NCBI GenBank assembly: GCA_041651035.1
Contig: JBAZKC010000001.1
Span: 515,244-579,243, forward strand
DNA: 64,000 nucleotides
Direction of reading: 5' to 3'
DNA from: Candidatus Omnitrophota bacterium
GTDB lineage: Bacteria > Omnitrophota > Gorgyraeia > Gygaellales > Profunditerraquicolaceae
The position numbers were made by a program, and so were the translations under genes. Under the pieces are notes generated by a model that was given only the letters and a program-made list of their open reading frames with translations, had not been told where the DNA came from and ran no database searches. Shown here piece by piece: positions 32,982 to 64,000 of this stretch (the first letter of the stretch is position 1; every line of letters starts with the position of its first letter).

Positions 32982-32984
32982 AGG

Positions 32985-33326: not shown

Positions 33327-33337
33327 AAGGATGAACT

Positions 33338-34300: not shown

Positions 34301-34311
34301 AGGAGAATGTG

Positions 34312-34746: not shown

Positions 34747-34766
34747 GGATTACGAAGGTAGTAAAT

Positions 34767-35009
34767 ATGATAAGAGAAGGCAGCCAAGCTAAAAAAGCAC
34801 AAGTAACTTTAGAGTTGGCTACCGCCCTTATCTGTATTTTCCTGTTACTTCTGGCGAGTGTAAAGCTCGGTACTTGGCTAATAGGCAGGATGGTAGTCAG
34901 GCAGGAAGATTATGAAACCAGCAGGGTAGCAGCAGGCAGCACAAATATAGGAGAAGCAGTTGATGAATCGGACACTACAAGATATAAAAACCTGCACTTC
35001 TTTAAATAA
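34767..35009 (+). CDS. Small TadE-like protein
   Basis: …KKAQVTLELATALICIFLLLLASVKLG… TadE-like N-terminal segment. Track ORF 34734 uses TTG; ATG 34767 preferred. The 3' end overlaps the tadG start by about 47 nt in another frame. Confidence 0.4.
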   Translation: MIREGSQAKKAQVTLELATALICIFLLLLASVKLGTWLIGRMVVRQEDYETSRVAAGSTNIGEAVDESDTTRYKNLHFFK

Positions 35010-37251: not shown

Positions 37252-37410
37252 ATGGGAAAAAGAGGGGCATTCTCTATAGAATACGCGGTGTTCATCGTTG
37301 TCCTAATTGCTTCTTTGGTAGCCATGTCCGTTTATATTACGCGGGCAGTCTGCGGTAAATTCAGGGAATCCGCCGATACATTTGGCCACGGCAGGCAATA
37401 TGCGCCTTAA
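37252..37410 (+). CDS. flp: Flp-family pilin (52 aa; below the ORF-track size cutoff)
   Basis: Manual translation: MGKRGAFSIEYAVFIVVLIASLVAMSVYITRAVCGKFRESADTFGHGRQYAP. Starts immediately after the tadG stop. Confidence 0.55.
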   Translation: MGKRGAFSIEYAVFIVVLIASLVAMSVYITRAVCGKFRESADTFGHGRQYAP

Positions 37411-37449
37411 GACAATCCAACCCAATTTAAACCTTTTTAGGAGGCAGGC

Positions 37450-38307: not shown

Positions 38308-38337
38308 ATCATAATATAAATACGAAAGAGAGGGGAT

Positions 38338-39192: not shown

Positions 39193-39193
39193 C

Positions 39194-39361
39194 AATGTCC
39201 AATCTAGTCTTAAATCAAGCTAGTAATGTCCAATCTATAGGGACTGTCCCCAGCCTTAGTTATGATGCACCATTCTTAATCCATTAAATGTCCAATCTAA
39301 TAGATACAGGGACTGTCCCCGAAATGTAGCTTCTGGTGGGCTGTTCTTAGGGGACTGTCCC
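39194..39361. repeat. Array of short repeats: 3x AATGTCCAATCTA interleaved with 3x GGGACTGTCCC(C) quasi-palindromes
   Basis: AATGTCCAATCTA at 39194-206, 39225-37 and 39287-99. GGGACTGTCCCC at 39240-51 and 39309-20, and GGGGACTGTCCC at 39350-61. Confidence 0.7.
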
Positions 39362-39474
39362 TAGATTTTGAGCTATTTTTGCCCCAAATCAACAAGATTA
39401 TTGGCCTTGTTAACCCATTACTAATGCAAAGGATTGCGGAAAAGAAAGCGCTCTCTTTAGAAGCAAAAACACAC

Positions 39475-39504
39475 TTGACATGGACGCTATCTATATGTTA
39501 TACT
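39475..39504 (+). promoter_or_regulatory. sigma70-type promoter TTGACA-N17/18-(T)TATACT for the giant gene
   Basis: TTGACA at 39475-80. Spacer contains GGACGCTAT, as at 29088-104. TATACT at 39499-504. About 190-nt leader before ATG 39697. Confidence 0.5.
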
Positions 39505-39642
39505 TGCGATGTAAACAGAAAGATTTGAAAGGCAATTTTTATTTCAGCTCTTTATAAGAAGTTTCACAAAGGACTTAATATTTACGTATGAAAAGCGTTA
39601 ATCTGAGCGCTATGATGAATAGAAAAAGTCTTCGGGGTAAGG

Positions 39643-39666
39643 GGAAAACTGTGCTTTTTCCTTTTT
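39643..39666 (+). terminator. Weak terminator/attenuator-like hairpin in the giant-gene leader
   Basis: GGAAAA-ctgtgct-TTTTCC followed by TTTTTAT; only 2 GC pairs, so it is weak. Confidence 0.2.
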
Positions 39667-39696
39667 ATATAGGTATTACCGTAACAGGTGAATAAA

Positions 39697-42600
39697 ATGG
39701 ATAAAGGCGGATACAAGAAAACCGAACCAGAGAATAAGCCACTAGGAAAAAAGGGACTGTCCCCGCAGGGGACTGTCCCTGGAACGTTCAAGTCTAGTTT
39801 CAAGGCTTGGATCCGCGTAGTGGCTTTTTTAGTGGTCGCGGTTTTCTTGCCTGAACAAGTAGCCCAGGCAGTGGAATATGACTGGCGCGTTATCTGGCAA
39901 AAGCCGGCTGTCTATACTTCCTCTTATGCCAATACCAAAGATATACACAATGCCGACATACCGCTTGCCATCAGGGACATCCTAAAAGATATATCAGGCA
40001 AGCCCGTAAATGCTATAAAGATCTCGCCCACCGTAACCGTAGAATTAAGCAAGCCGTTAAATATCTCCAAACAGAGAATTGAAGAAATATACAACTGGTT
40101 AAGAGGCAAGACCTGCGGCTCAAAGGCATTATATGACCTATTAAGCTACAAGGGTTTTAAGGTTGCTGAGCAGGATATCGCGGTCATGGCCTTGACCATA
40201 GATATATTAAACGATGTAGTAAAGGCTGAAGGCAACCCCAAGGTTATTAAGACGTCTTTATACGCCTTGTCTAAGGCATCAGAATCCTTCGGTTTAAAGC
40301 TTTACCCCGTAAAAATGGATTTATCACAGGGACTATCCCCAAAGGGGACTGTCCCTTTCATTGCTCACCTGAATTCCGACCACTATATCCTGGTAACCCG
40401 CGTAACCGATGAAAAAGTTTATTTTGTAGAGGAGCACAAAGAGGAGTTCCTGCCTAAAGAAAAGTTCCTGAAAGATTTCTCCGGGTATTGTCTGATAAGC
40501 CGCCAGCCTTCAGCTATTGGTCTGGAATCAGTTAACGATGCCGAAGCTAAGAAGATACTCGGCGCGCGTTCTTACAAAGGGGAATATGCCGATTTATCTT
40601 CCTTATTTGAAAAGCCGTCAACCAGTGATTTATTGATGAGCTTAGGCATGACTGTAGCTACGGTCGCCATAGGCGGGATTGGTGGAGGATTCTCCAACGC
40701 GATTGTTAGTTTCGGGACAGCCTGTTTTACCAGCCAGGTAAGCGGAGCGCTTACTACTATGGCGCAAAAAGAACTTGGCTGGAGTCCACAAGCTTCAGCG
40801 CTTTTAGGCATGGCTGTAGGCAGCGGGTTGAATATGGGCCTTAGCGCAAGTATGTCCTCTACTATATTGGGCTCTGGGAAAACCGGCACGTTTACCTCGT
40901 TTAAATATGCCCCGGCTGGTGTCCAGGCTTTTGCGGCAAATCATCCTTTTGTGGCCGGTTTTGCCGCAGGCACGCTTATGGGTGCCGCTCAAGGCGGTTT
41001 ACAGATTGTTTTAAATGATGCTTTTAGCGGCATGGATTCTTCACTTAGATATGGTTTATCCGGATTATTGAGTTCTACCGCGGTAACCTTTGGCTCTAAT
41101 GCTTTAATGGGTGCGCTTCCTGGGGGGAGTGGCGGCTGGGATGCCATAAAAGACACTTGGAATGCTAACAATAAACAGCTCCCCAAATATATGCTTACTC
41201 AAGGCATTGCTTTAGGAGTTGAGTATTTAGCTACAGAGACAGGTTTTATGAAACCCGAATATAGCCGTATCTTAGGCCAGGGTTTGGGTTCTTTAATTAC
41301 AGGATTTGCTTTCAAATCACCCGGAGGAATCGAACAACCCGGTAGATGGTTTACCATAGAGGATTCTCCTTTAGTGACTACGCTGGGCAATGCGGTTATA
41401 GATGGTTTAATTAGTGGGGGTATATCTGTTGGGTTAACTAAACTATCCAATGCCACCGAAGGGAATGAGTTTTTAGATGCGGCAACACCTTATATGGCTA
41501 TGTTGGTTTCAAACGTGCTTTATGCCGGGTATCATAGCTGGATAGCGAAAGATTTGTATTCTGCTCCTAGCCTTAGCGGAAATGGCACTATTTATGGAAC
41601 TGAAAAGCAATTGAGGGAACTTGGTATAACCAACCTGGATTTAACGCAGCATGCTACTTTTCTGGATCTAGCGTATGGGCAATCACAAAATATAGCGCGC
41701 GAGCACCTGACTTTTGGATACAGTTCTCCTTTTACACCCGCTGCATGGTTACAAGGCCAGCAGGAATATACCACTTTTAACTTCGCTTTATTCAATAACA
41801 AGATGTGGGATTTTACCGGCTTGACCTATTATGTTGACGCAGCCAAGCAGGCACAGGATACCTTAAGGAAGAACGGCGGGAATCCTGATGATTGGAGGAA
41901 ACAACAGATCCTGCCCGATTTTATGCAGTCCCTGGTTTATTATAACCGTTCATTTGCCAATGCCCAGGCAACCAATACCTTCGCCGATTTATTCAGAGAT
42001 GTCTATGCCAATGATCTAGGTGGCAATAAATTAGGAGCGTATCAAGCGGGGTGGGTACTAAAAGACGGGGAATTGACGAAAGTTAGTTTTAATAACGCGT
42101 TAAAGACATCGTACGGCAATAATGTGTTCGGCACTTATAATTCTCTTGCAGATGTATATGGGAAACAATTATCTTGGAATCAATCTTTTTATTCTAACAT
42201 CGGACTTACAAATGAATGGTGGCTGGGAATGTCATCAAGCTATATATACCCGGTTTTCGGGGGCAGGCTCGGTAATGATATCTTCCCTATGGTAGATGGG
42301 TCACCAATAAAGGAAAATACCACAGGTAGCTTAACCACTACTCTAGACATTTATAAAAATAAAGGCGGTATCTCTACAGTAAACATAGATACTGACACTC
42401 GGAAAACAATATTAGAAGTGGCGGGAAAATATAAGCAGGATATGGGATTAGAGGAGATGCCTTTAATCCAACGCTACAAGAAAGATAATGGTGGCGAAAT
42501 CATTTTATCTGAAGTCTTAATAGGGCCTTTAGATGGGAAGATGCCCCTTTCTACGAGAGATTGGGATTTAGTGCAAACGCTTGGTGGCCAGCCTACGCTT

Positions 42601-45600: not shown

Positions 45601-48600
45601 GATATGAAAGTTGAAAATTTTGGAATAAAATCTCTTTACTCTGCGGCAATGGATACAGGAATAAATGAGTTTGCTCATGGGGATTATGTGCGTGGCACAC
45701 TTAGTTACGGTTTGGGTTTTGGAGGACAGTTGTCAGCTACGACCGCAGCAATAATAGCTGTAGCCGCAACTGGCGGCCTCGGCAGTGTTACAGTTCCAGA
45801 AGTTATCGGGGCTATGGGATTGCCAGGTTTTCTCCTCGCAGGAGATACTGTAGCTGCTAATATAGAAATGCAACACCCTCTACATGAAGGAATAGGTGCT
45901 TTGAGTTCTTTAACAGGGGCCGGGTTTACTGCTGGTAGGGGTATATTGTGGTCTTTTGGCCGGGTAGGAGATTATGTAGGATTAGAAAATGATTTAGTCT
46001 CGCGAGTAGACAGTATAAATAAAACGGAGATGGAACAACTAAATACAGCTTTGCGAAGCCTACGGGGTGGAGAATATTGGGGACCTGCGGCCATGGCTGT
46101 AATTTCTGGCGCAAGAGCATATACTCAAGCATATACAGGGAGCTATATAGTGCAATTTATAGCTGCTCCGCATGAAGCAATAGCAGGTATGGTTAATTTG
46201 ATTCTTAAGCCTGGAGAAACACTTGGGGCAGGCAAGTGGGACCGGTTTGATGTTGCAGCGGTTACCGGTAGCTTTGTGGGCGGTTCATTAGGTTTCAGAG
46301 GATCATTGGTATTTGGAGATAAAGTATTTAAGAATTTAAATATTCCAAGCTTAGCCAGAAATATTAGTAAGTTTAAAGGAAGCACTATTGGAGATATCGG
46401 GATTTCAATTGCTAAAGGCGCGCCCACCGCTTATTTGGTTACAGTAGGATCTAGCTTAGTTTACCCTGTTCTTACTAACCGCAGTATAAGTAGTTTTAGC
46501 ATGAGTCCTTTTGGCCAATTGGGGGCAGATACGGATTCTTTATGGCGGGCTTCTGTAGGGTTTAGCGTTATAGGCAGTAGTACCCTCGCGCCTGTCTTTA
46601 AATACTTAAAAACAGGAGAGTTATCTGCCAAGCTGATTAAGAGTAGCATGGCTGGAGGGATGGCGTTAGGGACAGATTATCTTGTTTCTCGTGTCCAGGG
46701 ACAGGAATACAGTCTTGGAAGAGGCGCTATTGTATTTTCAACCGCAGCCCTGTCTGCCTTTGGGCTTTCTTACTTGGGTGGTAAGTTACCCGCATTATTA
46801 ACAAAAGAATATGTGAGTTATACTTTAGGCGCAGGCGTATCTTCACTTATGGGCGGTATAGCAAGTAATATTGCAATTAACGGAAAATATAATTTTATAT
46901 CTACAGACCCGTTAATGCATTTTGGTATTCCGGCCATTATTACTTTGGCAGCTAGACTTTCTGCGAAAGATATAGGCAAGCTTGATAGTAACATTTCTAT
47001 ACAGGCTACTAATTTCGGGAGAAACTTAGTCAGCCGAATATCCCCGATTCATAAGTTTAATCCTGCCACTGGGGTACTTGCAAAAGGATTTAATATATGG
47101 GGAACTATACCGTTGGCTTTGACTGCTTCGGGAGTTGTCATAAACAACATAGATAGCATACCCGCAGACACAAAAGAGCTCATTAATTTAGCTTTGCTTA
47201 CCGCAGGCGCAATGTATATAACATGGGGATTACGAGGAGAGGCAGGTGGCGGTAGTGGTATAAAAGCTATTGCTGAGAGAATGTTCAAGAAAGAAATCAC
47301 AAAAACTGGTGCCAAGGTTAATTGGAAGAGTCCGGATGTGTGGGGTATTGTTTCTAACGCGAGTATCCCTGCTTCGGTTTCCGCGCTTGCTATTTTAAAT
47401 TCCAAAGGCGATAATGGCCAATACGAACATTTTAAGAATATGTCTGAAAACTTAAGGTTTACCCTTACCTTAATAAGCGGTGCCACGTTATTTGCAGGTA
47501 TAGGAGGGTATAAAGAACTTTGGACTAATTTAACAAGAGGAGAAAACGTCTTTACAGGCAAAGTTCTGGTAAAAGAAAAGGGGGCATGGAAGTGGGAACT
47601 TTTCAAAAAGAGCGCGGATGGTAAACTGACAGAGCCAATCAATATATATACTCCGCGCGCTATGCTAAATTTATTAGGTAACAGAGGGGTATATTGGGGG
47701 GCTACTGCCGTTTGGGTTTTTGGAGGAGGGAAGTTATCAGACAATGAAACCTTTAAGACGATACATACTGTTACCAGTATTGGGTTGTTAGCGGCAGGAG
47801 TGATTATCCCCGGGGTAAAGCCTTTTGTTAAGAATCTCGGCAGAAGCTACAATCTTTTAACAGGCGAACTTGGCGGAAAGAGTGGGCCGTCCTTATTTGC
47901 CTATGAAATCGCCAAGACAGCCCTTCCTATTGTGCCTGCTTTAACAATCGGCATGGCAGGTTATACAGATGTGCAAAGCTATATCTATTCAATGAAAGAT
48001 AGCCAGGTAACGAACATCTTAAAGTATGCTTTTGGATTAAACGAGTTTAAGGATTCAGTAATTATAACGGGCCGGTCTTATTATAAAGATAATACGCTTA
48101 CCTATGAACAGATTAAAGATAGATTTGAATCAGAATATAAGAAACCGTTTGATTATCTTCATGCGAGCTGGTTTATGACGCTGGCCTCTATTAAAGAGGA
48201 GCTGAAGAAGGAAGGCCTTAGCGATGCGCAAAGAAAAGGCCTGGAAGAAAAACTGAAATATTACCAGGGTCTTTCCGAAAAGGATTTTGCAGTTGGCACC
48301 GGGAAATTCCGCTGGCTCATGAGGGCTCAATCTGGATACGAGGGCTTTAAGATGGCTTTATGGTTTGGTCCTGTTTTATACTTTGTCCGGCCTTTATTAG
48401 AAGCGGGCCTCAGGCGCATGCCTATTTCAGGTGAAGTGCAGGCATTTTTAGGAGAAAAGGGCATGGGAGATTCACTTATTCCTAAGGCCAAGTTGCCAGG
48501 AACCAACATATTTTCTAAATTGGCAAATAAATATGCCCTTAGGCCTTTCTATATGGCACAAGGCTTAATAATGGAAGAACAGGTTAGAGAAAATATCTTT

Positions 48601-57600: not shown

Positions 57601-60600
57601 ATATTACCTGTTTCTACATCGGTTTCAGCAGCCAGCCCGGTTTCTTCAAGAAGTCTGCCAGTAATCCCGGCCATCCCTGTAAGCTTAGCCGAGCAAAACT
57701 TAGTTAAAACAACAGCTAAGATTAGTTCCGGTGTTAATAGAATAGCTAGGATCTTAGATGCTACAAGAGAAATCCGCGAAAACTATAGAGAAAAATATGA
57801 CACGCTAGTAAATAGGTTTAAGGCAAATGGTGAAGGGACCACACGTATGTATAGGGCACCTCCTTATGGCCTTGCCAAGGCTGTTTTAGCAGCGATTTGG
57901 AACGCAATCAAGGAGGTGCTAAATGGACAAGAGAGAGGAACGAGAAGAGTTGATGAAGGAAGAGCTAATGGAAGAGGTAAGGAAGCGGCGCGCGCAATTC
58001 TTGCTTTTCTGGGTGGCACAACAGGCAGCAGAGAGAAAGGCAAGGAATCAGTAAGTTATGCTCTTGATGTTGCCTTCAGAAGCATTAAAACCGCGATAAC
58101 CAACGCAGCAAACCGTATTTATCTTACCTATATTAGTAAAGCCGGCTTAACAAGAAGCCCACCGTTAGTCAATTCCGTAACAACCAATATTAAGAATTTA
58201 TTAACCAGGCCGCAAGTCCTAATAACTACCGTGGCAGATTTATTAGGGTTAGCGGTTATTGTTGTGTATGGGGGCTTCCCAGGAGCCCTCCTCCGGGGAC
58301 TGACCTCTCCTCGGGAGGCCCTCATTACAACCTACGCTACAATAAAAGGAGGTGTACCATGTGCCCCATCAAAGTTGATGAATTACGCTTTGACCATCTT
58401 GTTGAATTCCTCAGAGATTCAACAGTATTTGCTGCAGCTAGGGAAAATGGTTATGGGTATCTCAGGTTATTCCTTATCAATGGTGAGAACGTCTACGCTC
58501 GTAATGGACGGGCTCAAGCCTGGGAGATCCTTACCGGCAGTATGCGCGAGAGCGTTATCGCTGGTATCACCGCAGCAAGGAATAACCACATCCCGGTCTA
58601 CAGAATCAACGGAGAAGGGCCTCATCAAGCCAACTAGAATACTTGGGGCCTTCTCTACCCCCACCGTCTCCAGTCCGATTGGTTATACGGCTCGCCATGA
58701 TGCAGGGATAGAGTTGTTTAGATTAATCATTGGATTTATGGTTGCAAAGACAAATAAGGATAGGTCAGATAAGGAAGTGGAAGCCGAACTTCTATCTGGT
58801 CTTCGGAATAAGAAGATAATAGATGTAGGTTGTGGCCGAATTCATAAATTGGTTGACTATCTGAGAAACGTAATAAAAGCAAAAGAAGTTTATGGCGTGG
58901 ATTACGCTCTGGGACAGGAAGTAGAATATGATATAAACACCGGGCTAATCAAAGGCGACGCACACGAGTTATCGGATTTATTAAAACGCAATGGAATAGA
59001 AGAGGTTGAGGTTGTGATAGCTACGGCATTCTTTAATTCGGAATGCGTAGAGATTTACACATTAGACAGATTACGAGTGTTACAGCAAATATACCAGGTT
59101 TTAGTCTCCGGCGGGAAGGTTTATTTAACCTCTTGTGCGAGAGACAAGGATTTAGAGGCTGAATTTGAAAAAGCAGGTTTTGACTTTGAGAATGTAAACA
59201 CTAGTGGATACTTAGGGATATATGTTTTGACCAAGCCTGGTAATGTTGTGGTTGTATCTAGTCCAATTGAATTTAGAAAGTTATTTTCTGGATCTCAGCC
59301 CAAAGATATCTTATTTCATAACACAACCTTAGCTGCTGTAGTAAGCGCTATAGCTAGAGAAGGTCAATTTGGTCCAGCTCCGCGTGAAGGCGTAGTGTAT
59401 ATGGCTGAGCAGCCGGTAGGCCCCAGCGACAGCTTTAATAATAGGGTTAGGAACGGAGACCTTAAATTCTTAAAACAAGGTATTGAGAAGACAGCTGCCA
59501 AATTAAATATTCCCCAAGGCAAGTTATGGAAATCTATTGAATTAAGCTTTAATAAGGACGCTTTAGCTTACGAAAATTATGGCTATATTATCGCCACCGG
59601 AGTTCATCTCAATATGTTATCTCTGGAAAGTAAGAAGATAATTCTAAAAGCTATCCCAACCTTGAGTCCTGATGACCATACTTGGATGGATGAGGGGTGG
59701 GCTATAGTAAAAGATTCCTCCAGTCCTATTTCTCTTAAAGATACAAATGCGGAAGAGTTGAGAATGGCGCTAAGTAAGTGGTCGATAGAGAGCCATTTTG
59801 AATGTTTCTTGTTCCGGGAAGAGAATTGGCCATCTTCTAATTCAGGCGCCGTGCTTCGTAAGATTGAGAAAGACGGAAAATTGGCAGGGTTCATTTCATA
59901 TTTAGTCGGAGATAGGGTATCCATAAAAGCGTTTATTGTTGATCCGAGCAAAAGAGGAGACGGAATAGGGAGTGAAGTTATTGAGTTAATTGCCGCAGAG
60001 AATATCGGTAAGGATATTGTTGTTGATCCTTTAAGCGATCGCGCGGTAGAGTTTTACAAGAGGCTCGGATTTAGAGTAGGCTTCGGTGGGAATTATGTAA
60101 GGTCAGCAGCTGAAATAATTAAATTTCTCCGCGCAGGCCCGCAACTTGACAAGGTTTTGAATAAATTCAATATTTTTTCTATAGACATAGGCCGGATAAA
60201 TGATATTGATACTCTCGCTCAAGAAGGTAAGCTCAACCTGGCTGCCGGCGGTGTGGTTATCGAAAACGGGAAGGACACATGCTTAAAGTGGACTGTGCGT
60301 GATGTATGTCAACTTGCCGCTAAACTTAGCGGTAGGCTTCTTTGTCATCCCGCCCTCGTTTCATTATACACAAGGGACAGTGTTTTGGAATTTGTCTTAC
60401 GGGAAGCCATTAAGAATTCATTGGCTCATGCCGTCCGTAATGGAGGAAAAGTTTGGATTACCTGGGAAATCAAAAATGATAAACTTATATTACAGGTAAT
60501 AGACGAAGGAAAACAGTCGTTTAAATTATCGACAAAAAGCTCTAAGGTTCAAATATCAGATTCATTTTCTCAACCTCTTGCGGGAGCCGGCCAAGGCTTA

Positions 60601-63600
60601 GAAATGATAAGAGAATACGCAGATCGCATTAAGATTACTCCCGTATACGATAAAAAGGGCAAAATAGCAGGTAATAGGATAATCCTTACAATATTCATAG
60701 CCCACCACCAGGCCAGAGAGGCTGAGCCTGCTTCCCCAGTCCAGCCCGGAGTTGTAAAAGAAGAAGGGCAGAAGAGCGAAGATGGCAGCGACTTTACCTC
60801 CAGCCCGCTTAAAGACACATTCGGCGCAGTGGTAAGGATTACCGGTGAGCAGAATAATACTACTGCCAGAGGCTCTTTTGTGGCAGGTTTAGTGGCATTG
60901 GCAGTTACAGGCGCAAGCATCTTAACATTATTACAATGGCCGTTTATTACTGTAGCTATTGCCGTTGGTTTAATAACAATTCCTTCGGTTATCAGCGCGG
61001 TTCTATTCTTTTCTCAAGGACTAAGAATTATCCACGCGTTTAATAAGGCCGGAGGGGTTAGAGGGTCGCCTTTAACCGCCCCAATCGCCTATGTTGTTAA
61101 TAACACAAAAACCACGGAATATGATCCTGCTTACAAGGAATTACATCCTAATCTGCAGAGGTCCATAGGATATCATGAGCAGGCCCATATAAACGGCAAG
61201 GGTGAAATAGCTGCTTATTTGGCGCAGGCAGGTTATTCTTTAAGGAAGAGTATTTACTTTATTATTCCTTCCGCGATATTTCTTTCCTCGGCTTATCTTC
61301 TAACTTTGCCTTTTATTGGTATCTTAGCATCATGGCAGGCAGCAGTATTATTTATAACGGCCGGCAGCTTGGTAATGTATGGTTTATTCAGCTTTGTAGA
61401 GAATGCAAAGATACTTAAAAGAGGCGAAGAGTTAGTATCAAGCTTTGGCATAAAGCTAAGCGAAGTAAAAAGCTTACCTCTAGATAAAATATTAGCCATT
61501 AATAATTACTTTAATAAGCATATTTATCCTGAATTACATAAACAAAGCCAGATTACCTTGGGTGGTAGTATAAAACGCATCCGCACCAATCCTTTAAGAA
61601 TGATTGTTTACGGCGGTTTAGGGGTTTTGGTTGCGGTTACTTTCCCACATCATTCCTTGCTTGCGATAATAGCTCTTATCGGCCTGTCAATTGTCCTTCC
61701 TTTTGTAGCTTTTGTAACTTATGATTTCTTCCACGCCGGCATGATTAAGGCAAAAGCTAGGGTTGAATTTTTCAGAGACTACTTAAGTGGTAAGTTGGAC
61801 GCAAATACTAAAGGAAAAGTTAAAGAAGAGATTACAAAATACGCAGAATCTCTGGAGAAAAATAATATTTCGTTTATCGCCAAATACCGGGCAGAGGTAA
61901 AAGGCCTCTGGGTAACATTCACATTATGCTGCCCGGCGATTTCAGGTATCGTTGTTTTCGCTTTAGGAAGAGGCCAGATGATTTTCTGGGGTTCTGTTGT
62001 CGCTTCAACTCTTATGCCGCTTATATTCACAACCCCCGCAGCTGCGGCAGGTTCAGTTTTGGTGTTCCTTCTGCCTGCCTTAAGCACTTTTGGGCTTGGG
62101 GCGTGTATAGGTCAATGTGCTGCTTTCCTTGGCGCATGGGGGCTTTCTTATACTTGGGGTGGTTTGTTAAGAATAGCTTTTATAGTGTGGGGTTTAAGGC
62201 TGGCTTCAATACCGATATTGCGCAATAAAATCCAGGATACCTATATGGTACGCAGATATGGATTCCCGGTTTTGAGCGGAGACTGGATTTATGATAATTG
62301 GGAGAAACTCGGCGAAGCGCATAAAATGATTATCAAGTATTATATTACAAAAGGATTAGTGCGTTCCGATGGTGTGCCTGGATTAACCGATTTAATCCGG
62401 AAAAAGGTTGGAGTCGGCAGGGAAAAGGAATATAAGAAAGGAGCGGCTTATCAATTATTCTATTATGTTTTATTTGATATTGCTGCATTAGGGTTTATTT
62501 TGATTTCTCCTTTGTTCGGCTTAAGATATGGCGTTGCCTATTTAGCGGGAAAGATAAATACAAAATTATTAGGACGTGAGAAAGAATCATTAGAAGAATT
62601 CTTAAAAGAAATAGAGAAAGAGTCTCCTTTATATCATATTTTATTAACTACCGGCGCCCAGTGGTGGATAAGCTATGGGCATATGTGGATTATCAGCGCA
62701 GAAATCGGCGCGGTCATAAAGAGCGGGGAATATTTAGCCGAACATCCTTACCTTAACTTTATCGGCCGACCCATTGATGCTGTAGCTAAGGCGTTGGAAG
62801 GTCAATACGGTTGTATTGCCTGGGGCTCCCATTTATTAAATATCGCTGATGATTCTCTGGGATTTAGCATGGCCCAGGTATTACATTCTGCCTTCCGTGG
62901 CACGGAAGATGTAAACAAATGGAACAATGAATTTAATTTAATATCATCCTTATATCAGGCGCAGTCTGGAACCGATAAGTTAACGCGTCTGGAATTGCGG
63001 ATAGAAGAATTAAGATCCAGAATTGATAAGGAAAGTGATGAGAATAAGAAGGGAAAACTCAATAAAAAATTAGAGAAATTAGAGAGAGAAAAAGAAGTAT
63101 TTGTTCTTAAGACGCAAAAGGAGGAAATAGCAGAATTTTTAGCAAAGAATAAGAAGACTTTCAAAGTGGGAGATCAAGCTTGGCAGATAGCTTATGTGCG
63201 AGAGATATTAAAGCTCTGGTTTAAGGGTAATGTTGGCATTAGTATAGGAGGGGTTAGTGATTGGGCATTTACTCCAGCAGTTACTGATCTATTTGAAGCT
63301 ATGGCATTAGAACCCCAGGAGTTTTATACAGATACAGTTGGTGCATATGTCCGTTTAGCACAGATGATGTCTGGCCTTGAGGCAACAGGTGTATGGGATA
63401 AAAAGACCCAGGAGAAAATAGGTACTATTGTCCTCGCTAACCTGGATGAAGCAATAGAAGGTAAGGAGACATCTGTAGAGGTGGATACTGAAGTTAAAGT
63501 AGTAGGATCGAATGAAACTATTCTCAACGTTACCAAGGCTCCATTGATTACGAGAGCCGAGAAAACCATAGAGTCGTTTGGGGCATTGTTAAGGCAAGGG

Positions 63601-64000
63601 CCTTCAGGCGTTTTTACAAGCTTGCTTAATAAAGAGCTCACTACGCCGATAGCTGGCATTTTACGCGATGCCTCCAGAGCGAATGATAGGACAGGAATTG
63701 ATGGTATAACAGAAGAAAAAGGACTTGAGCCTATCAGCATGCCTTTGAACAATGAGCCGGGTAATGAATGGATATTCCCTGTTAAAGGCGATTATTATAT
63801 CAGCTCGGGTTATGGCCTGAGAGATCCTATTAAGTTCGATAAAGCAAAGGAAGACGGCCTTGCTCCTGTGGGAGGGGATAACGTTGTTCCTGTAACGGAT
63901 AAAGATGTTGCTGAATCTATAGTTGAAATAGAAATCCCAGGAGCCGTAGTGGGAGTAGAGAATCCTGAATCTACGATAAAAGGAGAAAGCTCTGAGCCCT
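39697..64000 (+). CDS. Giant gene (3'-partial; at least 24,304 nt / at least 8,101 codons in window). Membrane-anchored mosaic protein: C39-like peptidase N-domain, TM-rich and coiled-coil regions, and LysM-, HEAT-, GT9-, SAM-MTase-, GNAT- and GHKL-ATPase-like modules
   Basis: ATG 39697 has AGGTG 6 nt upstream and an in-frame TAA at 39682-84. I read frame ≡1 (mod 3) codon by codon to position 64000 without meeting a stop. The ORF track lists no plus-strand ORF in this frame across the region, only short ORFs in the other frames and antisense. Recognisable motifs are listed in the findings. Confidence 0.75.
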   Translation, partial: MDKGGYKKTEPENKPLGKKGLSPQGTVPGTFKSSFKAWIRVVAFLVVAVFLPEQVAQAVEYDWRVIWQKPAVYTSSYANTKDIHNADIPLAIRDILKDISGKPVNAIKISPTVTVELSKPLNISKQRIEEIYNWLRGKTCGSKALYDLLSYKGFKVAEQDIAVMALTIDILNDVVKAEGNPKVIKTSLYALSKASESFGLKLYPVKMDLSQGLSPKGTVPFIAHLNSDHYILVTRVTDEKVYFVEEHKEEFLPKEKFLKDFSGYCLISRQPSAIGLESVNDAEAKKILGARSYKGEYADLSSLFEKPSTSDLLMSLGMTVATVAIGGIGGGFSNAIVSFGTACFTSQVSGALTTMAQKELGWSPQASALLGMAVGSGLNMGLSASMSSTILGSGKTGTFTSFKYAPAGVQAFAANHPFVAGFAAGTLMGAAQGGLQIVLNDAFSGMDSSLRYGLSGLLSSTAVTFGSNALMGALPGGSGGWDAIKDTWNANNKQLPKYMLTQGIALGVEYLATETGFMKPEYSRILGQGLGSLITGFAFKSPGGIEQPGRWFTIEDSPLVTTLGNAVIDGLISGGISVGLTKLSNATEGNEFLDAATPYMAMLVSNVLYAGYHSWIAKDLYSAPSLSGNGTIYGTEKQLRELGITNLDLTQHATFLDLAYGQSQNIAREHLTFGYSSPFTPAAWLQGQQEYTTFNFALFNNKMWDFTGLTYYVDAAKQAQDTLRKNGGNPDDWRKQQILPDFMQSLVYYNRSFANAQATNTFADLFRDVYANDLGGNKLGAYQAGWVLKDGELTKVSFNNALKTSYGNNVFGTYNSLADVYGKQLSWNQSFYSNIGLTNEWWLGMSSSYIYPVFGGRLGNDIFPMVDGSPIKENTTGSLTTTLDIYKNKGGISTVNIDTDTRKTILEVAGKYKQDMGLEEMPLIQRYKKDNGGEIILSEVLIGPLDGKMPLSTRDWDLVQTLGGQPTLAMHFWGKQEIRRTDGSKDYGIEGKLSITDGILSGSVINKDGKGIVGGATKGGIEIKDYDNGATTILLPSFGNISYTGEGKNNNFSLKSSNTTVDASVIRFNPGKDSAVPEISIGITGEVGKSVPMLYKNIPLLSGGSGSSSKIKAPTKSIGIDQIVSGSTLKDGVVATPEQLLNSLLVFTFTEQGVYLFVDKDTLSVEMPSDVYMAVGAGNKVALPTDNYKLVKEFIGLENKSLMVTNNGAVRVDRSLIQWTPGFGAVGYDVRTDGYYKTTVGEDGKLSKLDAYVLGDTGTRDITLNEQEWTETYTNNGSTYWIGKPGGLPAIAAEKDKTITSEFANADRTLTFKGVATTRSYDNGKNHAAPATVFIYNDPSGKFPRFAVEKGITKGKSSIDPTNPYAVPTSANFKTTHENLLLAQSGIFSMVNNVKYSPVVKKVEKSAFEKEVDRHKEVIAKAITKDKISSNIIKSQPDTKEAKKFIAQSGVAQTNNSKPIPLGLIISLGAKTLTTGFEEMHAETSMAVPAKKIGGEIKEIADGILSKLGTGQGHKSRREFVTKVISDGMSGNFNDTAFVASLPGKIRQYMETTGDHFKELKDSNGKSRYSGRGKEYDFAAYLLATVKDSASWVDYKKIIEAGGDAVLNSNKTVKDTAEADKKQRDAEMAVTEKYGYSREGYQGRDGYTEEGLNSLQDNYNRPIFRESVLAKLDANSARTEFGTLKSDRTTPYKVDKAIEETIKESGGYSPRDLLDETTRHTVFSNDYIKNYNNESLFWNLVLNMASSAGLVDPKTGALKEGLQDSYELGKIFEAASEKLHYYPEGFSGRTGYAYKNVNSLRDTYNNDNFSATVNNAIKVASDINKYAKGDTISTLSRMTGSGYYIPVLTKEDLVVEMSAIGTMAKYIAKDIVVNPAVSLISSGIAKLVAPSPVALFLNNSKIISTPSPIGRLLSSSISKSLSVQAILESVSAMFMANSVVADLYLSKDDKKATFEEAYRSSGLKGLGYDMKVENFGIKSLYSAAMDTGINEFAHGDYVRGTLSYGLGFGGQLSATTAAIIAVAATGGLGSVTVPEVIGAMGLPGFLLAGDTVAANIEMQHPLHEGIGALSSLTGAGFTAGRGILWSFGRVGDYVGLENDLVSRVDSINKTEMEQLNTALRSLRGGEYWGPAAMAVISGARAYTQAYTGSYIVQFIAAPHEAIAGMVNLILKPGETLGAGKWDRFDVAAVTGSFVGGSLGFRGSLVFGDKVFKNLNIPSLARNISKFKGSTIGDIGISIAKGAPTAYLVTVGSSLVYPVLTNRSISSFSMSPFGQLGADTDSLWRASVGFSVIGSSTLAPVFKYLKTGELSAKLIKSSMAGGMALGTDYLVSRVQGQEYSLGRGAIVFSTAALSAFGLSYLGGKLPALLTKEYVSYTLGAGVSSLMGGIASNIAINGKYNFISTDPLMHFGIPAIITLAARLSAKDIGKLDSNISIQATNFGRNLVSRISPIHKFNPATGVLAKGFNIWGTIPLALTASGVVINNIDSIPADTKELINLALLTAGAMYITWGLRGEAGGGSGIKAIAERMFKKEITKTGAKVNWKSPDVWGIVSNASIPASVSALAILNSKGDNGQYEHFKNMSENLRFTLTLISGATLFAGIGGYKELWTNLTRGENVFTGKVLVKEKGAWKWELFKKSADGKLTEPINIYTPRAMLNLLGNRGVYWGATAVWVFGGGKLSDNETFKTIHTVTSIGLLAAGVIIPGVKPFVKNLGRSYNLLTGELGGKSGPSLFAYEIAKTALPIVPALTIGMAGYTDVQSYIYSMKDSQVTNILKYAFGLNEFKDSVIITGRSYYKDNTLTYEQIKDRFESEYKKPFDYLHASWFMTLASIKEELKKEGLSDAQRKGLEEKLKYYQGLSEKDFAVGTGKFRWLMRAQSGYEGFKMALWFGPVLYFVRPLLEAGLRRMPISGEVQAFLGEKGMGDSLIPKAKLPGTNIFSKLANKYALRPFYMAQGLIMEEQVRENIFSFMFNPFVTSAGVRLNTDPSSDGYRTQQQLLEGLQESNDFMGGRFGISNINSRVIKGLAEGGFTVTGISTPKVEDATNVPDAAEINNKLATNYTEGLNMIKDLPAGAVITINIPAEKHSSEMAAGNYRYEITSKSAWSKSIELYITEKGINQGLKTGSRDPVVTLTQAKDYAVDPVTKEASERVLVSRFNTEQINAVISGSDDIKITFKNKEGSSWVFTARELMPAVYERLENEPALREQVNALPAFQGLEVIQQVSFLESGMPRSPPSEQQIKARIEEIEGEYSTLLQRYNSSQDKNLIPGIQALDNRRIELEQGLVTNQTVVDKELSGITIIVQNIAPYSKRSRRFVEKDRELHLAYTQFQRSQDPLSVSAILELEQEVKDLHKEVVYEHALLKHGGDKIALRKEIIDSRIQESTSAISFLEDLKAQITDKENGMDDERYEEHLIAVEEQKMMLAKKDAEAISKRIVEVKKQIAEEGTESFRTEEAKDIEGQLKDLNKIKLQIQKGRAINVKEITYQDFLSAKKWESIFREELTSPQYKFPAGLFRGVDESAPQYARDFVEYLIKVRANNQPGLNEATLKKREGLFRGYFTYSYTGKNVAALRIEFGDNLFKLFSLLDSTATRESTFDLAKALFDQRKQIAGLYSEQLINLSEIIYQALKDDGKTRELIDNLPAILNEIQNSEVKGLPPTYRLLGEEREQAKNERRLNKEQGTVNIDIQPTPIENVTYALYGEDGIELDIQKMGSLLDILKNYSHELNHAIFKSLSVKEKKAIYDIFESDEVVNRLRYAMLYFRLMEQGGEWREELLSKFGIDLEHMDPSEVFNVVDKIKDTLSAHEYMFGIISRSANKEEGESRKKDLIEESLAVYQGYLILKGAQEELENDPNNAYLQTVFTPQLQRELKALSKIAEIIGPAIKDHPDVFEKVKDSLETIEANGGTLRKQQEENAEAADDASKPSSPLVTKMSQDEIMAKTLEAVAKAEGDKNAKVKTSSPIEQIEQTALMNIKSDERTYIEKVLSNREFFINSFQNLGMDAERIINVGQRFYGKQKAVYQATVLLKDGTSREFALVVIKGGDSVLRDLEFQKTVNNRDTAITQKLGGWSGEVERGVRVKIEEYVSGLSLESILDSLRAQLKDSQISDKTANKIKLLMEVLVRKANMITVRLWNVTGELNDIDYSNYKFDKKKGEKFLAPRIVDLDAPDDFDPRTPDNFEKSTAGDLVTLLSVDTTNTLGFASILDESIARAISQGRAFEEGKLEGIKILKDALAELAIKAKEEALYPYDKLVQSLKNYLSEEGGVKDYEYVDYTIDRFKLPVAEEAINRIPLYSSSPVVVIAEIMDKLQTKDLTIIQRRELIDEVNKVLVENPKESKEALIVWLVKNAQDKPWPDVLKGISALGLGEIMAVKVPFGVDINTLFEGLSSKGIVKEMAVSLYTMKPGITPYDYILAKDTARGQAYLVAYDNNGITGVFEGADMVKQLETIGLINPDPTAATTGVVLIQTSLAGTGFDKAIYAEAKAILHTHPLAYKTDKGPSKPSESDRELYNLRRGRKQITSSPLTLPSDEGRQADKLPIQPMLPATIPLSSQQQPVVGSLVGISSSSIIVNPVNSAILPGLFGRLTANIRLPIKSSVLHLASGLAPPDKSDSTKSKAGVAQIRVEVSIGAAELVQFGAIEVEESSADAANVSGTTSAASRNAEKQGVRAVSEETEKSTTILREYIGIEGALPDQDVTVSTAVYARVIAEIVNALGATFEVVKAGIEELLTGIFAVNKKPVVSVAGNAGVISRDPNLIVPSFGTGEIGASRIVASTPLGKIESGRFVPEISASAASPVTINFNTTKEIVRNITEAKSRLNSIIRDVKNGKDHNGSVRIKVMELVDWSEAEKEIYAQDLKDRIYASEAIESEVLGVEKVLKGIAAMDIKNELISLSDDPTQILALVDNGLRALAELLRSNPELRKKFIEEIVPVSYRGLYRKLEKEDVDKKQSANKLDSIEEKTKGIEEKIQALEKDFGEFKEEVRKAITALKEAGELTEQKIEELYKKFAVLELNMKKGDISKERIEERARELIEKARKRGEKVLPSEEHHYWMRAAEELYKEVSEMGNCLIGTAVVDPTYREEVILEARRAVKKMTGSFFIKINTFLEVMKRVTKQEWKGYWVDADKLKNSSDAVANKVMIVYKEGNQYHSFRFSEYKDGYFYGYAGNDFGETMPVKIHESKVITNNGKLTKKLEIMIVSAKEIKDKYFVSERELSEEEKEIEVGQRGGSGSAGGSTAGPGTGSTGAANAGGEGNGAVGPGSDPDKDAAADEDGTYEFGQINNIDTNYSASTPVINSTANFNANSSLAPPGVVHKASSSLARSFQKIILVAAIAIAIFSAAKPVNAATYYRDNSGAACVRVDKGDTFGGILQDIRVKFNAVDSQAYKSSGVFGEYWGPGGAVERAWGEIFAGQRSKPDLIYAGEEFSLENLHLPPIVEEALTGMPGPNPPSEENKPTDSAEPLGGSPQTTKQVTSIKKYIIIAAVAIAALACLILWLRSFKNKNTKKNDPKEVPPSGTSYYYYDGGEQIEIREETRKKVNNLKDSVGDGDTAAIDELSNLAKSGKQDEKILALKALINLAENGNEATKKAIEKLLGIDISGIRKALFVNALYAGMGDEIIRFQLIQALLAYNPDIEVDIVTNRPYIYNSLKGEFKVRIIDISKTPHMDARFDEKASGSYYDGHVIDLTRAPVDLLAEEYDFVFYVGHREGMLPFRAPVKIALSNVCPHTAPLELTVSNGDVFLLGGEKNVYATNLLLARALGLPTRFVLPELFVSEDAREFKETRAWLEANGLRINEEGRKPVVVLEAFGGGQQDKGFYRNTKAIAALAESLRDAGYTVVISRNDRANADKIAAIKKEMANTAGIIFMPSPTEQPAAWFKYFLNIADAVLAVEGGSPHFAYALGKPFIIIVSQPVMARMNGYGEPIEMWFSEYADRAKQDYVAFNKEFDEFSAADIAKIVNRFTQILPVSTSVSAASPVSSRSLPVIPAIPVSLAEQNLVKTTAKISSGVNRIARILDATREIRENYREKYDTLVNRFKANGEGTTRMYRAPPYGLAKAVLAAIWNAIKEVLNGQERGTRRVDEGRANGRGKEAARAILAFLGGTTGSREKGKESVSYALDVAFRSIKTAITNAANRIYLTYISKAGLTRSPPLVNSVTTNIKNLLTRPQVLITTVADLLGLAVIVVYGGFPGALLRGLTSPREALITTYATIKGGVPCAPSKLMNYALTILLNSSEIQQYLLQLGKMVMGISGYSLSMVRTSTLVMDGLKPGRSLPAVCARALSLVSPQQGITTSRSTESTEKGLIKPTRILGAFSTPTVSSPIGYTARHDAGIELFRLIIGFMVAKTNKDRSDKEVEAELLSGLRNKKIIDVGCGRIHKLVDYLRNVIKAKEVYGVDYALGQEVEYDINTGLIKGDAHELSDLLKRNGIEEVEVVIATAFFNSECVEIYTLDRLRVLQQIYQVLVSGGKVYLTSCARDKDLEAEFEKAGFDFENVNTSGYLGIYVLTKPGNVVVVSSPIEFRKLFSGSQPKDILFHNTTLAAVVSAIAREGQFGPAPREGVVYMAEQPVGPSDSFNNRVRNGDLKFLKQGIEKTAAKLNIPQGKLWKSIELSFNKDALAYENYGYIIATGVHLNMLSLESKKIILKAIPTLSPDDHTWMDEGWAIVKDSSSPISLKDTNAEELRMALSKWSIESHFECFLFREENWPSSNSGAVLRKIEKDGKLAGFISYLVGDRVSIKAFIVDPSKRGDGIGSEVIELIAAENIGKDIVVDPLSDRAVEFYKRLGFRVGFGGNYVRSAAEIIKFLRAGPQLDKVLNKFNIFSIDIGRINDIDTLAQEGKLNLAAGGVVIENGKDTCLKWTVRDVCQLAAKLSGRLLCHPALVSLYTRDSVLEFVLREAIKNSLAHAVRNGGKVWITWEIKNDKLILQVIDEGKQSFKLSTKSSKVQISDSFSQPLAGAGQGLEMIREYADRIKITPVYDKKGKIAGNRIILTIFIAHHQAREAEPASPVQPGVVKEEGQKSEDGSDFTSSPLKDTFGAVVRITGEQNNTTARGSFVAGLVALAVTGASILTLLQWPFITVAIAVGLITIPSVISAVLFFSQGLRIIHAFNKAGGVRGSPLTAPIAYVVNNTKTTEYDPAYKELHPNLQRSIGYHEQAHINGKGEIAAYLAQAGYSLRKSIYFIIPSAIFLSSAYLLTLPFIGILASWQAAVLFITAGSLVMYGLFSFVENAKILKRGEELVSSFGIKLSEVKSLPLDKILAINNYFNKHIYPELHKQSQITLGGSIKRIRTNPLRMIVYGGLGVLVAVTFPHHSLLAIIALIGLSIVLPFVAFVTYDFFHAGMIKAKARVEFFRDYLSGKLDANTKGKVKEEITKYAESLEKNNISFIAKYRAEVKGLWVTFTLCCPAISGIVVFALGRGQMIFWGSVVASTLMPLIFTTPAAAAGSVLVFLLPALSTFGLGACIGQCAAFLGAWGLSYTWGGLLRIAFIVWGLRLASIPILRNKIQDTYMVRRYGFPVLSGDWIYDNWEKLGEAHKMIIKYYITKGLVRSDGVPGLTDLIRKKVGVGREKEYKKGAAYQLFYYVLFDIAALGFILISPLFGLRYGVAYLAGKINTKLLGREKESLEEFLKEIEKESPLYHILLTTGAQWWISYGHMWIISAEIGAVIKSGEYLAEHPYLNFIGRPIDAVAKALEGQYGCIAWGSHLLNIADDSLGFSMAQVLHSAFRGTEDVNKWNNEFNLISSLYQAQSGTDKLTRLELRIEELRSRIDKESDENKKGKLNKKLEKLEREKEVFVLKTQKEEIAEFLAKNKKTFKVGDQAWQIAYVREILKLWFKGNVGISIGGVSDWAFTPAVTDLFEAMALEPQEFYTDTVGAYVRLAQMMSGLEATGVWDKKTQEKIGTIVLANLDEAIEGKETSVEVDTEVKVVGSNETILNVTKAPLITRAEKTIESFGALLRQGPSGVFTSLLNKELTTPIAGILRDASRANDRTGIDGITEEKGLEPISMPLNNEPGNEWIFPVKGDYYISSGYGLRDPIKFDKAKEDGLAPVGGDNVVPVTDKDVAESIVEIEIPGAVVGVENPESTIKGESSEP

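Follow-up and report, generated by a model that had tools for sequence, protein, structure and literature searches.

A giant gene of at least 30,550 codons beside a Tad/Flp-type locus in a member of the Omnitrophota

Giant genes of the Omnitrophota

Open reading frames (ORFs) exceeding 20 kb in length occur in 77 of 116 Velamenicoccia genomes and also in other Omnitrophota classes (Seymour et al., 2023, PMC10066038), and in another study 24-28% of the Omnitrophota contigs carried a protein of at least 10,000 amino acids (aa) (Nielsen and Lui, 2026, bioRxiv 10.64898/2026.06.07.730766). The subject here is a gene of this kind, the 5′ part of which lies at one end of a 64,000-nt stretch of DNA from a Candidatus Omnitrophota bacterium (assembly GCA_041651035.1, contig JBAZKC010000001.1, positions 515,244-579,243 of the forward strand). 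The whole of this stretch is termed the window. An earlier note on the same DNA, made from its letters and a list of ORFs, considered genes of this size very rare in bacteria. They are rare across bacteria, but the two surveys cited above show that they are common within the Omnitrophota.

The giant protein of Ca. Velamenicoccus archaeovorus LiM, the type of this class, has 39,678 aa, and its peptides are enriched three-fold in cells that are attached to larger cells, relative to unattached ones (Kizina, 2022, as summarized in PMC10066038). The Omnitrophota giants described by West-Roberts et al. (2023, bioRxiv 10.1101/2023.11.21.568195) reach 85,804 aa and form a class called ‘Archaeovorin’-like, with a C39 (or S8) peptidase near an N-terminal signal peptide. 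Divergent SecA DEAD-like and preprotein-binding domains occur in most of the full-length ones, and the domain set further includes glycosyltransferases, methyltransferases, glycoside hydrolases, peptidases and NUDIX domains, together with many transmembrane regions. A conserved locus is found 5′ of these genes and contains GspD, GspE, two GspF-like proteins, RcpC, a Rotamase_2 peptidyl-prolyl isomerase and small class III signal peptide genes; pilZ genes and a carbohydrate import system are found on the 3′ side. Nielsen and Lui (2026) catalogued 916 long proteins, the largest of 147,155 aa, and found secretion or pilus genes beside 13 of the 14 largest giants. They report a PF03412 architecture cluster of 24 proteins and a ‘Module 1’ consisting of methyltransferase, HATPase and GNAT domains; 46% of the long Omnitrophota proteins have transmembrane helices without a signal peptide and are read as cytoplasm-facing.

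The gene in the window is very probably real and a member of this known class of Omnitrophota giant membrane-protein genes beside a Tad/Flp-type locus, a kinship that the earlier note had proposed. Its relatives are nearly all labelled Omnitrophota and a Tad-type locus adjoins it. This locus, at 22319-39192, shares the published upstream set gene for gene, with all six components, and the predicted protein likewise has an N-terminal anchor (aa 33-59) beside a C39 domain (about aa 120-270). The gene is a single ORF of more than 20 kb, which is how Seymour et al. (2023) delimit the giant ORFs of Omnitrophota. Taken as a whole, this account is quite likely to be the best explanation of the locus.

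An uninterrupted reading frame and its coding signal

The plus-strand frame from the ATG at 39697 to 63999 comprises 8,101 codons with zero stops on translation, and the ORF (24,304 nt, 39697-64000) is still open where the window stops. The closest in-frame stop 5′ of the ATG is a TAA at 39682-39684. With an expected stop frequency of 0.062 per codon, derived from base composition, the chance of 8,101 stop-free codons is about 1e-224. The runner-up open stretch across all six frames of the window is 766 aa, and the other five frames have 6-65 stops each per 1.5-kb block across the ORF. Codon frequencies of the giant ORF correlate with those of 27 neighbouring genes (r=0.90; shifted frames only 0.47 and 0.26), and the correlation stays at 0.77-0.85 in each 3-kb block. 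No tandem repeats were found within the ORF and self-BLAST found no internal duplications of the visible protein. The ORF is thus neither low-complexity sequence nor a collapsed repeat. The earlier note had claimed both an uninterrupted frame to the end of the window and a translation that is not low-complexity, and the checks agree on each count. It had also pointed to the absence of this frame from the ORF list; the frame is indeed absent, but only because the list skips ORFs that cross the end of the window.

Three other explanations of the long frame were considered and rejected. Stop-codon reassignment is ruled out, as the 27 neighbouring genes use all three stops (TAA 18, TGA 5, TAG 4) and the genetic code is therefore standard. 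A repeat-scaffold protein is ruled out by the lack of tandem or internal repeats in the visible part. Self-splicing or other RNA elements inside the ORF are ruled out by an RNA-family scan, which found no Rfam families or tRNAs there.

A second assembly shows that the gene is longer than the window reveals, as had been predicted. The contig ERZ27247363:k141_1136661 in the European Nucleotide Archive (ENA; 127,809 bp) encodes the TadC-like protein that adjoins the giant gene, and the giant gene itself starts at the same ATG, is called as a partial product of 30,550 aa and passes the contig end. The contig and the window match over 20.8 kb without a mismatch, and this overlap takes in the first 9.5 kb of the giant ORF. 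A single 12-nt indel is present and lies outside the giant ORF. That the identity is broken only by this 12-nt copy difference indicates two different assemblies that are in agreement. The giant gene is thus at least 91,651 nt (~91.6 kb) or at least 30,550 codons long, at least 22,449 residues of the protein lie past the end of the window, and the window holds the 5′ quarter or less of one genuine giant gene. The suspicion that standard annotation may have missed or fragmented the gene did not hold up, in that the ENA gene caller called the 30,550-aa partial product.

The indel itself is of some interest. It falls in a 12-nt in-frame tandem repeat, GCTGTTGGCGGA, at window positions 35427-35442 within a 763-aa gene (34960-37251), and this repeat encodes a Gly/Ala-rich stretch. 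There are three copies in the window and two in k141_1136661, the sole difference over 20.8 kb, and this is strain-level copy-number variation. The form of the 763-aa gene seen in the window was not found on record. A gene from far 5′ in the window was located on another contig, of 6 kb, in the same ENA sample.

Might the long frame be an assembly artefact, i.e. a chimera or a collapsed repeat that is open by accident? The source is of the metagenome type, short-read assemblies often break giant ORFs up or join them wrongly, and 5 of the 80 related loci described below have stops, frameshifts or N gaps. However, the second assembly is the same base for base over the first 9.5 kb and open for 91.6 kb. 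In addition, there are no tandem or internal repeats to collapse, codon usage is uniform, a random join would have to stay open against 6% stops per codon, and 75 of the 80 relatives behave alike. An artefact is highly improbable.

Relatives of the gene and divergence of its body

A search with aa 1-1200 returned 49 protein relatives, mostly annotated as ‘C39 domain-containing protein, partial’, and all are labelled Omnitrophota or Omnitrophica except one Dehalococcoidales-labelled fragment from a metagenome-assembled genome (MAG). The alignment reaches aa 785 only in the closest relatives, and similarity is gone past about aa 800. In a genomic survey of one genome per GTDB species, 88 loci with the N-terminal part of the protein (the head) were found and 80 were fetched. 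Nearly all of the 80 are from Omnitrophota MAGs or single-amplified genomes; some have automated ‘Planctomycetales’ labels and one is labelled Ignavibacteriae. Judged from the labels of its relatives, the giant gene appears to be encoded by a member of the Omnitrophota. No GTDB species representative has the identical locus, and the best is 71% identical.

The ORF passes the end of the fetched DNA in 75 of these 80 loci, with up to ~3,650 aa visible. The other five have stops, frameshifts or N gaps, and in four of them the coding sequence continues to the end in a shifted frame, which points to frameshifts or N gaps as the cause.

Matches to the window protein are unevenly spread along the chain: 70 loci match at aa 1-200, eight at aa 401-600, none at aa 801-2000, and between five and eight at aa 2033-3314. 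With aa 2033-3232 as the query, an exhaustive phmmer search of 1.84 billion representative proteins gave only 17 relatives, the longest of 4,764 aa. It should be kept in mind that the phmmer libraries seem to lack proteins of giant length, as the window protein itself was not returned, nor was anything above ~4,800 aa. Three of the 17 relatives were scanned and showed no Pfam domain. Searches of a 5.8-billion-protein database with aa 2033-3232 and aa 5326-6525 gave no homologues. The pattern is one of a head that is conserved and a body that diverges fast. Over 90% of the visible chain is without detectable relatives even among billions of proteins, and the body thus evolves very fast.

Nothing speaks positively for the ORF being a decaying or non-expressed relic, open by chance or of recent origin, though homologues of its interior are nearly absent. 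The chance of the open frame given above (~1e-224) and the uniform coding signal are hard to reconcile with a relic, as is purifying selection on the head in at least 88 species. In addition, the related giant protein of V. archaeovorus has been detected by proteomics, as summarized in PMC10066038. The probability of a relic is close to nil.

The C39 head

The part of the protein that is shared across species is the following.

39787-40596, plus strand: conserved head (aa 31-300), with a signal anchor at aa 33-59 followed by a C39 papain-fold peptidase domain at about aa 120-270

The N-terminus is Lys-rich over aa 1-32 and hydrophobic over aa 33-59, and the AlphaFold2 (AF2) model has a helix at 35-59. 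The anchor-region sequence FKSSFKAWIRVVAF...FLPEQVAQAVEYDW is highly conserved among relatives. Pfam Peptidase_C39 matches the head with E=2.6e-10 (40.7 bits against a cut-off of 22), and the AF2 model of the C39 domain has a predicted local distance difference test score (pLDDT) of 80-93. When this model was submitted to Foldseek, the top 14 matches were to the double-glycine proteases LahT150 (6mpz), PCAT1 and ComA and to a Vibrio C39-like domain. The best E value was 4.5e-6 and target template-modelling scores were 0.65-0.71, with about 0.70 for LahT150, PCAT1 and ComA. Thus both the signal anchor and the C39-like peptidase that had been read from the translation in the earlier note are well founded.

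Cys140 (40114-40116, in KTCGSKAL) and His229 (40381-40383, in DHYILV) are invariant in 20 sequences. At position 245, which is 16 residues past His229, there is Glu in the window protein and Asp in most relatives. By motif, spacing and fold, Cys140, His229 and Glu245 are candidate catalytic residues, and we take their positions to match the Cys-His-Asp arrangement of the ComA and PCAT1 peptidase domains. The new detail that this locus offers is a predicted C39 head that is found in at least 88 species, with ~60% identity over aa 31-300 and with Cys140 and His229 invariant. The head appears to be the one part of the giant protein under strong purifying selection. With its intact-looking active site, it is an obvious target for biochemistry.

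The visible body

Features of the remainder of the visible protein are listed here in order.

40609-41496, plus strand: Gly/Ala/Ser-rich block (aa 305-600), moderately hydrophobic, conserved in the closest relatives only
45793-49638, plus strand: second conserved block (aa 2033-3314), largely helical; eight of the 80 related loci match it at 32-40% identity
54550-54819, plus strand: coiled-coil-like segment (aa 4952-5041) from a crude heptad scan, with weak Spectrin, Laminin_II and syntaxin matches
55378-55500, plus strand: Gly-rich linker (aa 5228-5268), read from the sequence
55684-56196, plus strand: two strong hydrophobic helices by hydropathy (aa 5330-5348 and 5482-5500) with a 133-aa loop between them
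56962-57516, plus strand: segment resembling glycosyltransferase family 9 (GT9; heptosyltransferase), aa 5756-5940 (Glyco_transf_9, E=0.0079, 16 bits against a cut-off of 22; NCBIfam heptsyl_trn_I, E=0.0066; below threshold)
58807-59172, plus strand: segment resembling an S-adenosylmethionine (SAM) methyltransferase, aa 6371-6492 (Methyltransf_31, E=4.1e-5, 23.7 bits against a cut-off of 27; just below)
59779-60075, plus strand: predicted GNAT acetyltransferase, aa 6695-6793 (Acetyltransf_1, E=1.7e-9, 38.4 bits against a cut-off of 20.7)
60304-60657, plus strand: predicted RsbW/SpoIIAB-type histidine-kinase-like ATPase, aa 6870-6987 (HATPase_c_2, E=1.1e-7, 32.4 bits against a cut-off of 27.4; weak NCBIfam RsbW match)
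60877-62523, plus strand: multi-pass membrane block (aa 7061-7609) with nine strong hydrophobic segments
63799-63876, plus strand: M23-peptidase-like motif WIFPVKGDYYISSGYGLRDP (PVKGDYYISSGYGLRDP), aa 8035-8060, seen by eye and without a Pfam match, ~40 codons from the end of the window

A strong hydrophobic segment is defined here by the Kyte-Doolittle scale with a 19-residue window and a value of at least 1.8, which is a crude method. At this strict threshold the visible protein has 13 such segments, and 21 at a looser one. One further strong helix is at aa 6174-6192. Soluble stretches and hydrophobic blocks thus alternate along the chain. No recognisable features are present in aa 800-2000, and the ~5,000 residues between the C39 head and the later hydrophobic helices are without recognisable domains. 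AF2 modelling of aa 2033-3232 from a six-sequence alignment gave a pLDDT of 37.7 and the model is unusable. PDB sequence searches with the visible protein added nothing.

The earlier note had drawn a similar map. The coiled coil it placed at 54.4-54.9 kb is supported by the heptad scan at 54.55-54.82 kb, and the Gly-rich linker at 55.38-55.50 kb is present. Of its three hydrophobic multi-helix blocks, the one at 60.85-62.25 kb corresponds to the nine strong segments of aa 7061-7609, but those at 40.6-41.2 and 45.6-47.9 kb are only moderately hydrophobic and are Gly/Ala/Ser-rich. Its enzyme-like modules are also a mixed case: the GNAT and HATPase_c_2 matches are above the Pfam cut-offs, but the methyltransferase and GT9 matches are below.

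A LysM-like motif can be seen by eye in the loop between the two strong helices (window 55750-56000, aa ~5360-5440: VRVDKGDTFGGILQDI ... LIYAGEEFSL); it is without Pfam support. The M23-like domain, if real, would be incomplete within the window. If both motifs are real, they would point to binding and cleavage of peptidoglycan.

The mosaic build of this chain raises the question of whether it is a polyprotein, i.e. one chain that is cut into many working proteins by the C39 head or by other proteases, such that there is no giant protein in the cell. West-Roberts et al. (2023, bioRxiv 10.1101/2023.11.21.568195) raised the same possibility for the Omnitrophota giants. In its fold and its invariant Cys and His, the head is like active double-glycine proteases, and it is the only strongly conserved part. 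The body looks like a mosaic of unrelated modules with linkers, for example the Gly-rich segment at aa 5228-5268, and it contains 67 Gly-Gly dipeptides. However, no cleavage sites are identifiable, and segments in the cytoplasm would be out of reach for a single periplasmic protease. We consider a polyprotein of this type rather unlikely.

The Tad/Flp locus and the spacer

The locus on the 5′ side of the giant gene is composed as follows.

22319-23287, plus strand: PPIC-type peptidyl-prolyl isomerase, first gene of the locus (Pfam Rotamase_2, E=2.4e-14)
23288-24190, plus strand: RcpC/CpaB-like Flp pilus assembly protein (Pfam RcpC, E=4.2e-23; also a SAF domain)
24201-25802, plus strand: RcpA/CpaC-like secretin (Pfam Secretin, E=1.6e-37; T2SS-T3SS_pil_N, E=3.1e-13; C-terminal TonB_C, E=2.5e-13)
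25809-27980, plus strand: TadZ/CpaE-like ParA/MinD ATPase fused to a TadA/CpaF ATPase, 723 aa (AAA_31, CbiA and ParA at aa 3-188; T2SSE, E=1.9e-62, at aa 370-648)
28055-28396, plus strand: DUF192 protein
28477-28959, minus strand: IS200/IS605-type Y1 transposase, between the DUF192 gene and the 651-aa gene, present in both assemblies
29173-31128, plus strand: 651-aa gene, product with a weak match to a winged helix at the N-terminus and a long repeat region rich in Pro (PEPI.EQPV...)
31756-31920, 31938-32261, 32292-32630, 32658-32981 and 32985-33326, plus strand: five small Flp-type prepilins (G/A-XXXX-EY followed by a hydrophobic helix)
33338-37251, plus strand: three conserved genes of 320, 156 and 763 aa, with homologues in the same order in many related loci
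37450-38307, plus strand: TadB-like protein (T2SSF)
38338-39192, plus strand: TadC-like protein (T2SSF; E=5.2e-16 and 1.6e-15 for the TadB-like/TadC-like pair)

The earlier note had placed a Tad locus immediately upstream of the giant gene, and the Pfam matches across 22319-39192 bear this out. The core set of a Tad/Flp system (Flp pilin, RcpA secretin, RcpC, TadZ, TadA, TadB and TadC) is present in full. TadB and TadC are found 5′ of the giant gene on the same strand in 43 of the 56 related loci for which over 4 kb of upstream DNA is available. Prepilin matches to Flp_Fap and Class_IIIsignal are both under the cut-off, and the prepilins are conserved in related loci. The 651-aa gene is found at the same place, 5′ of the pilins, in about a dozen related loci, and therefore seems to be a member of the locus and not a passenger. 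A Pfam scan of the 320-, 156- and 763-aa genes gave no match, and BLAST showed no domain in common between the Tad-locus proteins and the giant protein. No TadV/CpaA prepilin peptidase (Peptidase_A24) was found in the 20 ORFs scanned from 16.1 to 39.2 kb, and such a gene may be present in another part of the genome.

Two observations may be added. Near the five Flp-type prepilins, the sole peptidase domain is the C39 head of the giant protein. The fusion of a secretin with TonB_C is unusual, and could tie the outer-membrane channel to the periplasm or to peptidoglycan.

A spacer of 504 nt separates the Tad locus from the giant gene and contains two candidate expression signals.

39475-39504, plus strand: candidate sigma-70-like promoter (TTGACA, an 18-nt spacer, TATACT, and a TG before the -10 element; 11 of 12 positions match the consensus, and this is a consensus match only)
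39686-39691, plus strand: Shine-Dalgarno-like AGGTGA, 5 nt 5′ of the start codon, read from the sequence

The spacer also has three copies of a direct repeat, (T)AATGTCCAATCTA, at window positions 39190-39299, 5′ of the promoter-like site. Copies 2 and 3 each stand a few bases 5′ of a GGGACTGTCCCC palindrome. The repeats may be part of a composite repeat or may be regulator-binding sites.

Further genes of the window lie 5′ of the Tad locus.

2100-11969, plus strand: sugar-modification cluster with an RmlD-like reductase, phosphomannose isomerase, two aminotransferases, a B12-binding radical SAM enzyme and C-methyltransferases
13671-17306, minus strand: signalling cluster with a FIST-domain protein, a histidine kinase and a response regulator with GGDEF, ~5 kb 5′ of the Tad locus
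17613-18953, minus strand: Lgt (aa 7-235) and phosphatidylserine decarboxylase (aa 275-441) in one 446-aa ORF, an unusual fusion of two envelope-lipid enzymes

The enzymes of the first cluster suggest that an unusual methylated amino sugar is made there for the cell surface. The signalling cluster may be relevant here because published giant-gene loci have been linked to cyclic di-GMP (pilZ, GGDEF).

A palindromic element around the 5′ end

An 11-nt palindrome, GGGACTGTCCC, occurs in six exact copies in the window, all within 39240-40355, when 0.02 would be expected. Three are in the spacer (39240, 39309 and 39351) and three in the head-coding region (39753, 39769 and 40345), where there is also a one-mismatch copy at 40329. 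The copies in the coding region form two pairs, with members 16 nt apart, and one pair includes the one-mismatch copy. These pairs encode GLSPQGTVP (aa 20-28) and GLSPKGTVP (aa 212-220), the same DNA word being read in two reading frames. As GLSP.GTVP is read in two frames, the selection or insertion acts on the nucleic acid. Both pairs are predicted to fold into strong hairpins, one of -23.2 kcal/mol (z-score -3.7) and one of -19.4 kcal/mol (z-score -4.3).

Near-identical elements of 27-30 nt are found at differing positions of the head region in 13 of the 80 related loci. Operators specific to giant genes were considered as an explanation of the palindromes and this was dropped, as the paired element is present on at least 120 unrelated metagenome contigs, with GC contents of 40-69%, and none of those copies is in a C39 head. 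The pair is thus a widespread small palindromic element. It tolerates, or perhaps prefers, in-frame loop positions. It resembles the in-frame palindromic elements of Rickettsia, though it is much shorter. A literature search for GGGACTGTCCC in this context gave no match.

Possible mode of action and membrane topology

A tentative functional account, built on analogy and possible at best, is that of a megaprotein that works with the Tad-like machine at the surface of a host or prey cell. The nascent chain would reach the inner membrane via the signal anchor and be inserted co-translationally, and by the positive-inside rule the C39 head would come to lie on the periplasmic side. The later helices would thread the chain back and forth such that modules are exposed on both faces of the membrane. 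The megaprotein and the neighbouring Tad-like machine might then attach to and process the surface of host or prey cells, as has been proposed for Ca. Velamenicoccus archaeovorus. The head would most likely be a generic maturation protease, and the most economical guess is that it cuts the megaprotein itself or a partner at Gly-Gly-type sites. It is conserved independently of the body, and its task should therefore be generic.

Counting strong helices, one would place aa 60-5329 and the GT9-like part outside the cytoplasm and the methyltransferase/GNAT/ATPase part inside. The published papers on giants note the same topology difficulty that arises for this protein.

The modules can also be looked at in another way, as parts of what is mainly an inner-membrane-anchored scaffold of cytoplasmic enzymes and regulators, with no surface or prey effector and with the Tad adjacency reflecting co-regulation only. 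The recognisable enzymes depend on cofactors of the cytoplasm: the methyltransferase on SAM, GNAT on acetyl-CoA, the RsbW-like domain on ATP and GT9 on a nucleotide sugar. Six Lys/Arg residues follow the helix at 5482-5500, suggesting that the chain beyond it is cytoplasmic, and a precedent may be seen in the 46% of long Omnitrophota proteins that are read as cytoplasm-facing (Nielsen and Lui, 2026). The N-terminus, however, is signal-anchor-like, with positive charges N-terminal of the helix, and with no strong hydrophobic segment for ~5,270 residues after the anchor, the greater part of the visible chain would lie outside the cytoplasm. The LysM-like and M23-like motifs, seen by eye and without hidden Markov model support, also point to the periplasm. 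A scaffold of this mainly cytoplasmic kind is unlikely.

Several points weigh against the reading of this gene as an Archaeovorin-type giant with a protease head that acts together with a Tad-like machine. With respect to the head, the Pfam C39 alignment spans profile positions 45-129 only, leaving the Cys-bearing part unaligned, and a head profile had no match among PDB sequences, such that only the fold search matched. Pfam matches above the cut-off (C39, GNAT and HATPase_c_2) cover 4.5% of the visible residues, and no SecA-DEAD-like Pfam domain was found in the visible aa 1-8101. Gene order is the sole link between the C39 head and the Tad machine. In addition, the topology obtained from strong helices does not agree with the bias in charge at helix 5482-5500, nor with the cofactor need of a GT9-like domain.

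One may go a step further and imagine the periplasmic head, with an active C39 protease, as a generic device that couples megaproteins to the Tad-like machine. It would cut the nascent megaprotein, or partners exported by the Tad system, at Gly-Gly. On this view the giant gene would encode a polyprotein precursor threaded through the membrane, with a variable body that changes rapidly under pressure from host or prey. As a side point, the 27-nt hairpin element inserted in frame into loops of the head may be a small mobile palindrome that is tolerated in coding sequence. This broader proposal is speculative and, as a whole, doubtful.

Comparison with known systems

The C39 head shares with PCAT1, ComA and LahT150 a papain-like fold, a Cys in C-G-x-x-A, a His in an H-Y-hydrophobic strand and an acidic residue 16 positions after the His. 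There are differences from the peptidase domains of PCATs. The head stands behind a signal anchor and its predicted location is the periplasm, whereas PCAT peptidase domains are cytoplasmic. The spacing from Cys to His is 89 residues compared with ~79 in PCAT-type C39 domains, owing to an inserted loop at aa 212-220, and the Gln expected six residues before the C39 Cys is not evident in the head, where Trp134/Asn133 are found. No match to ABC_membrane or ABC_tran was obtained in aa 1-8101; the head is not ABC-fused and the protein is thus not a PCAT.

Compared with the tad locus of Aggregatibacter and the cpa locus of Caulobacter, the window has the same RcpC/CpaB, secretin, TadZ/CpaE, TadA/CpaF, TadB and TadC proteins and several Flp prepilins. 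It differs in its fused TadZ-TadA, the TonB_C domain on the secretin, the three conserved extra genes and the attached giant gene.

With respect to the giants themselves, the window protein differs from the Archaeovorin type in that, apart from the head, it is almost without detectable relatives, and Pfam shows no glycoside hydrolase, NUDIX, HEAT or TPR domain in the visible 8,101 aa. The likenesses in addition to those given at the outset are the numerous transmembrane segments predicted by hydropathy, and the scattered methyltransferase-, GNAT- and glycosyltransferase-like and peptidase modules in a largely unannotatable chain. By architecture, the protein can also be likened to the PF03412 cluster and to ‘Module 1’ of Nielsen and Lui (2026), in that C39 is the defining Pfam match and methyltransferase-like, GNAT and HATPase-type domains occur together. 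The window HATPase match is to PF13581 (RsbW-like), at threshold, and not to the PF02518 of their module. The protein likewise resembles their type that has a signal peptide plus transmembrane helices and a secretion or pilus flank.

Genes this large probe how far transcription, translation, membrane insertion and folding can go. To the known giants the locus adds a well-supported one, of at least 30,550 codons and present in two assemblies. It fits the present view of giant genes in the Omnitrophota closely and leaves that view as it was.

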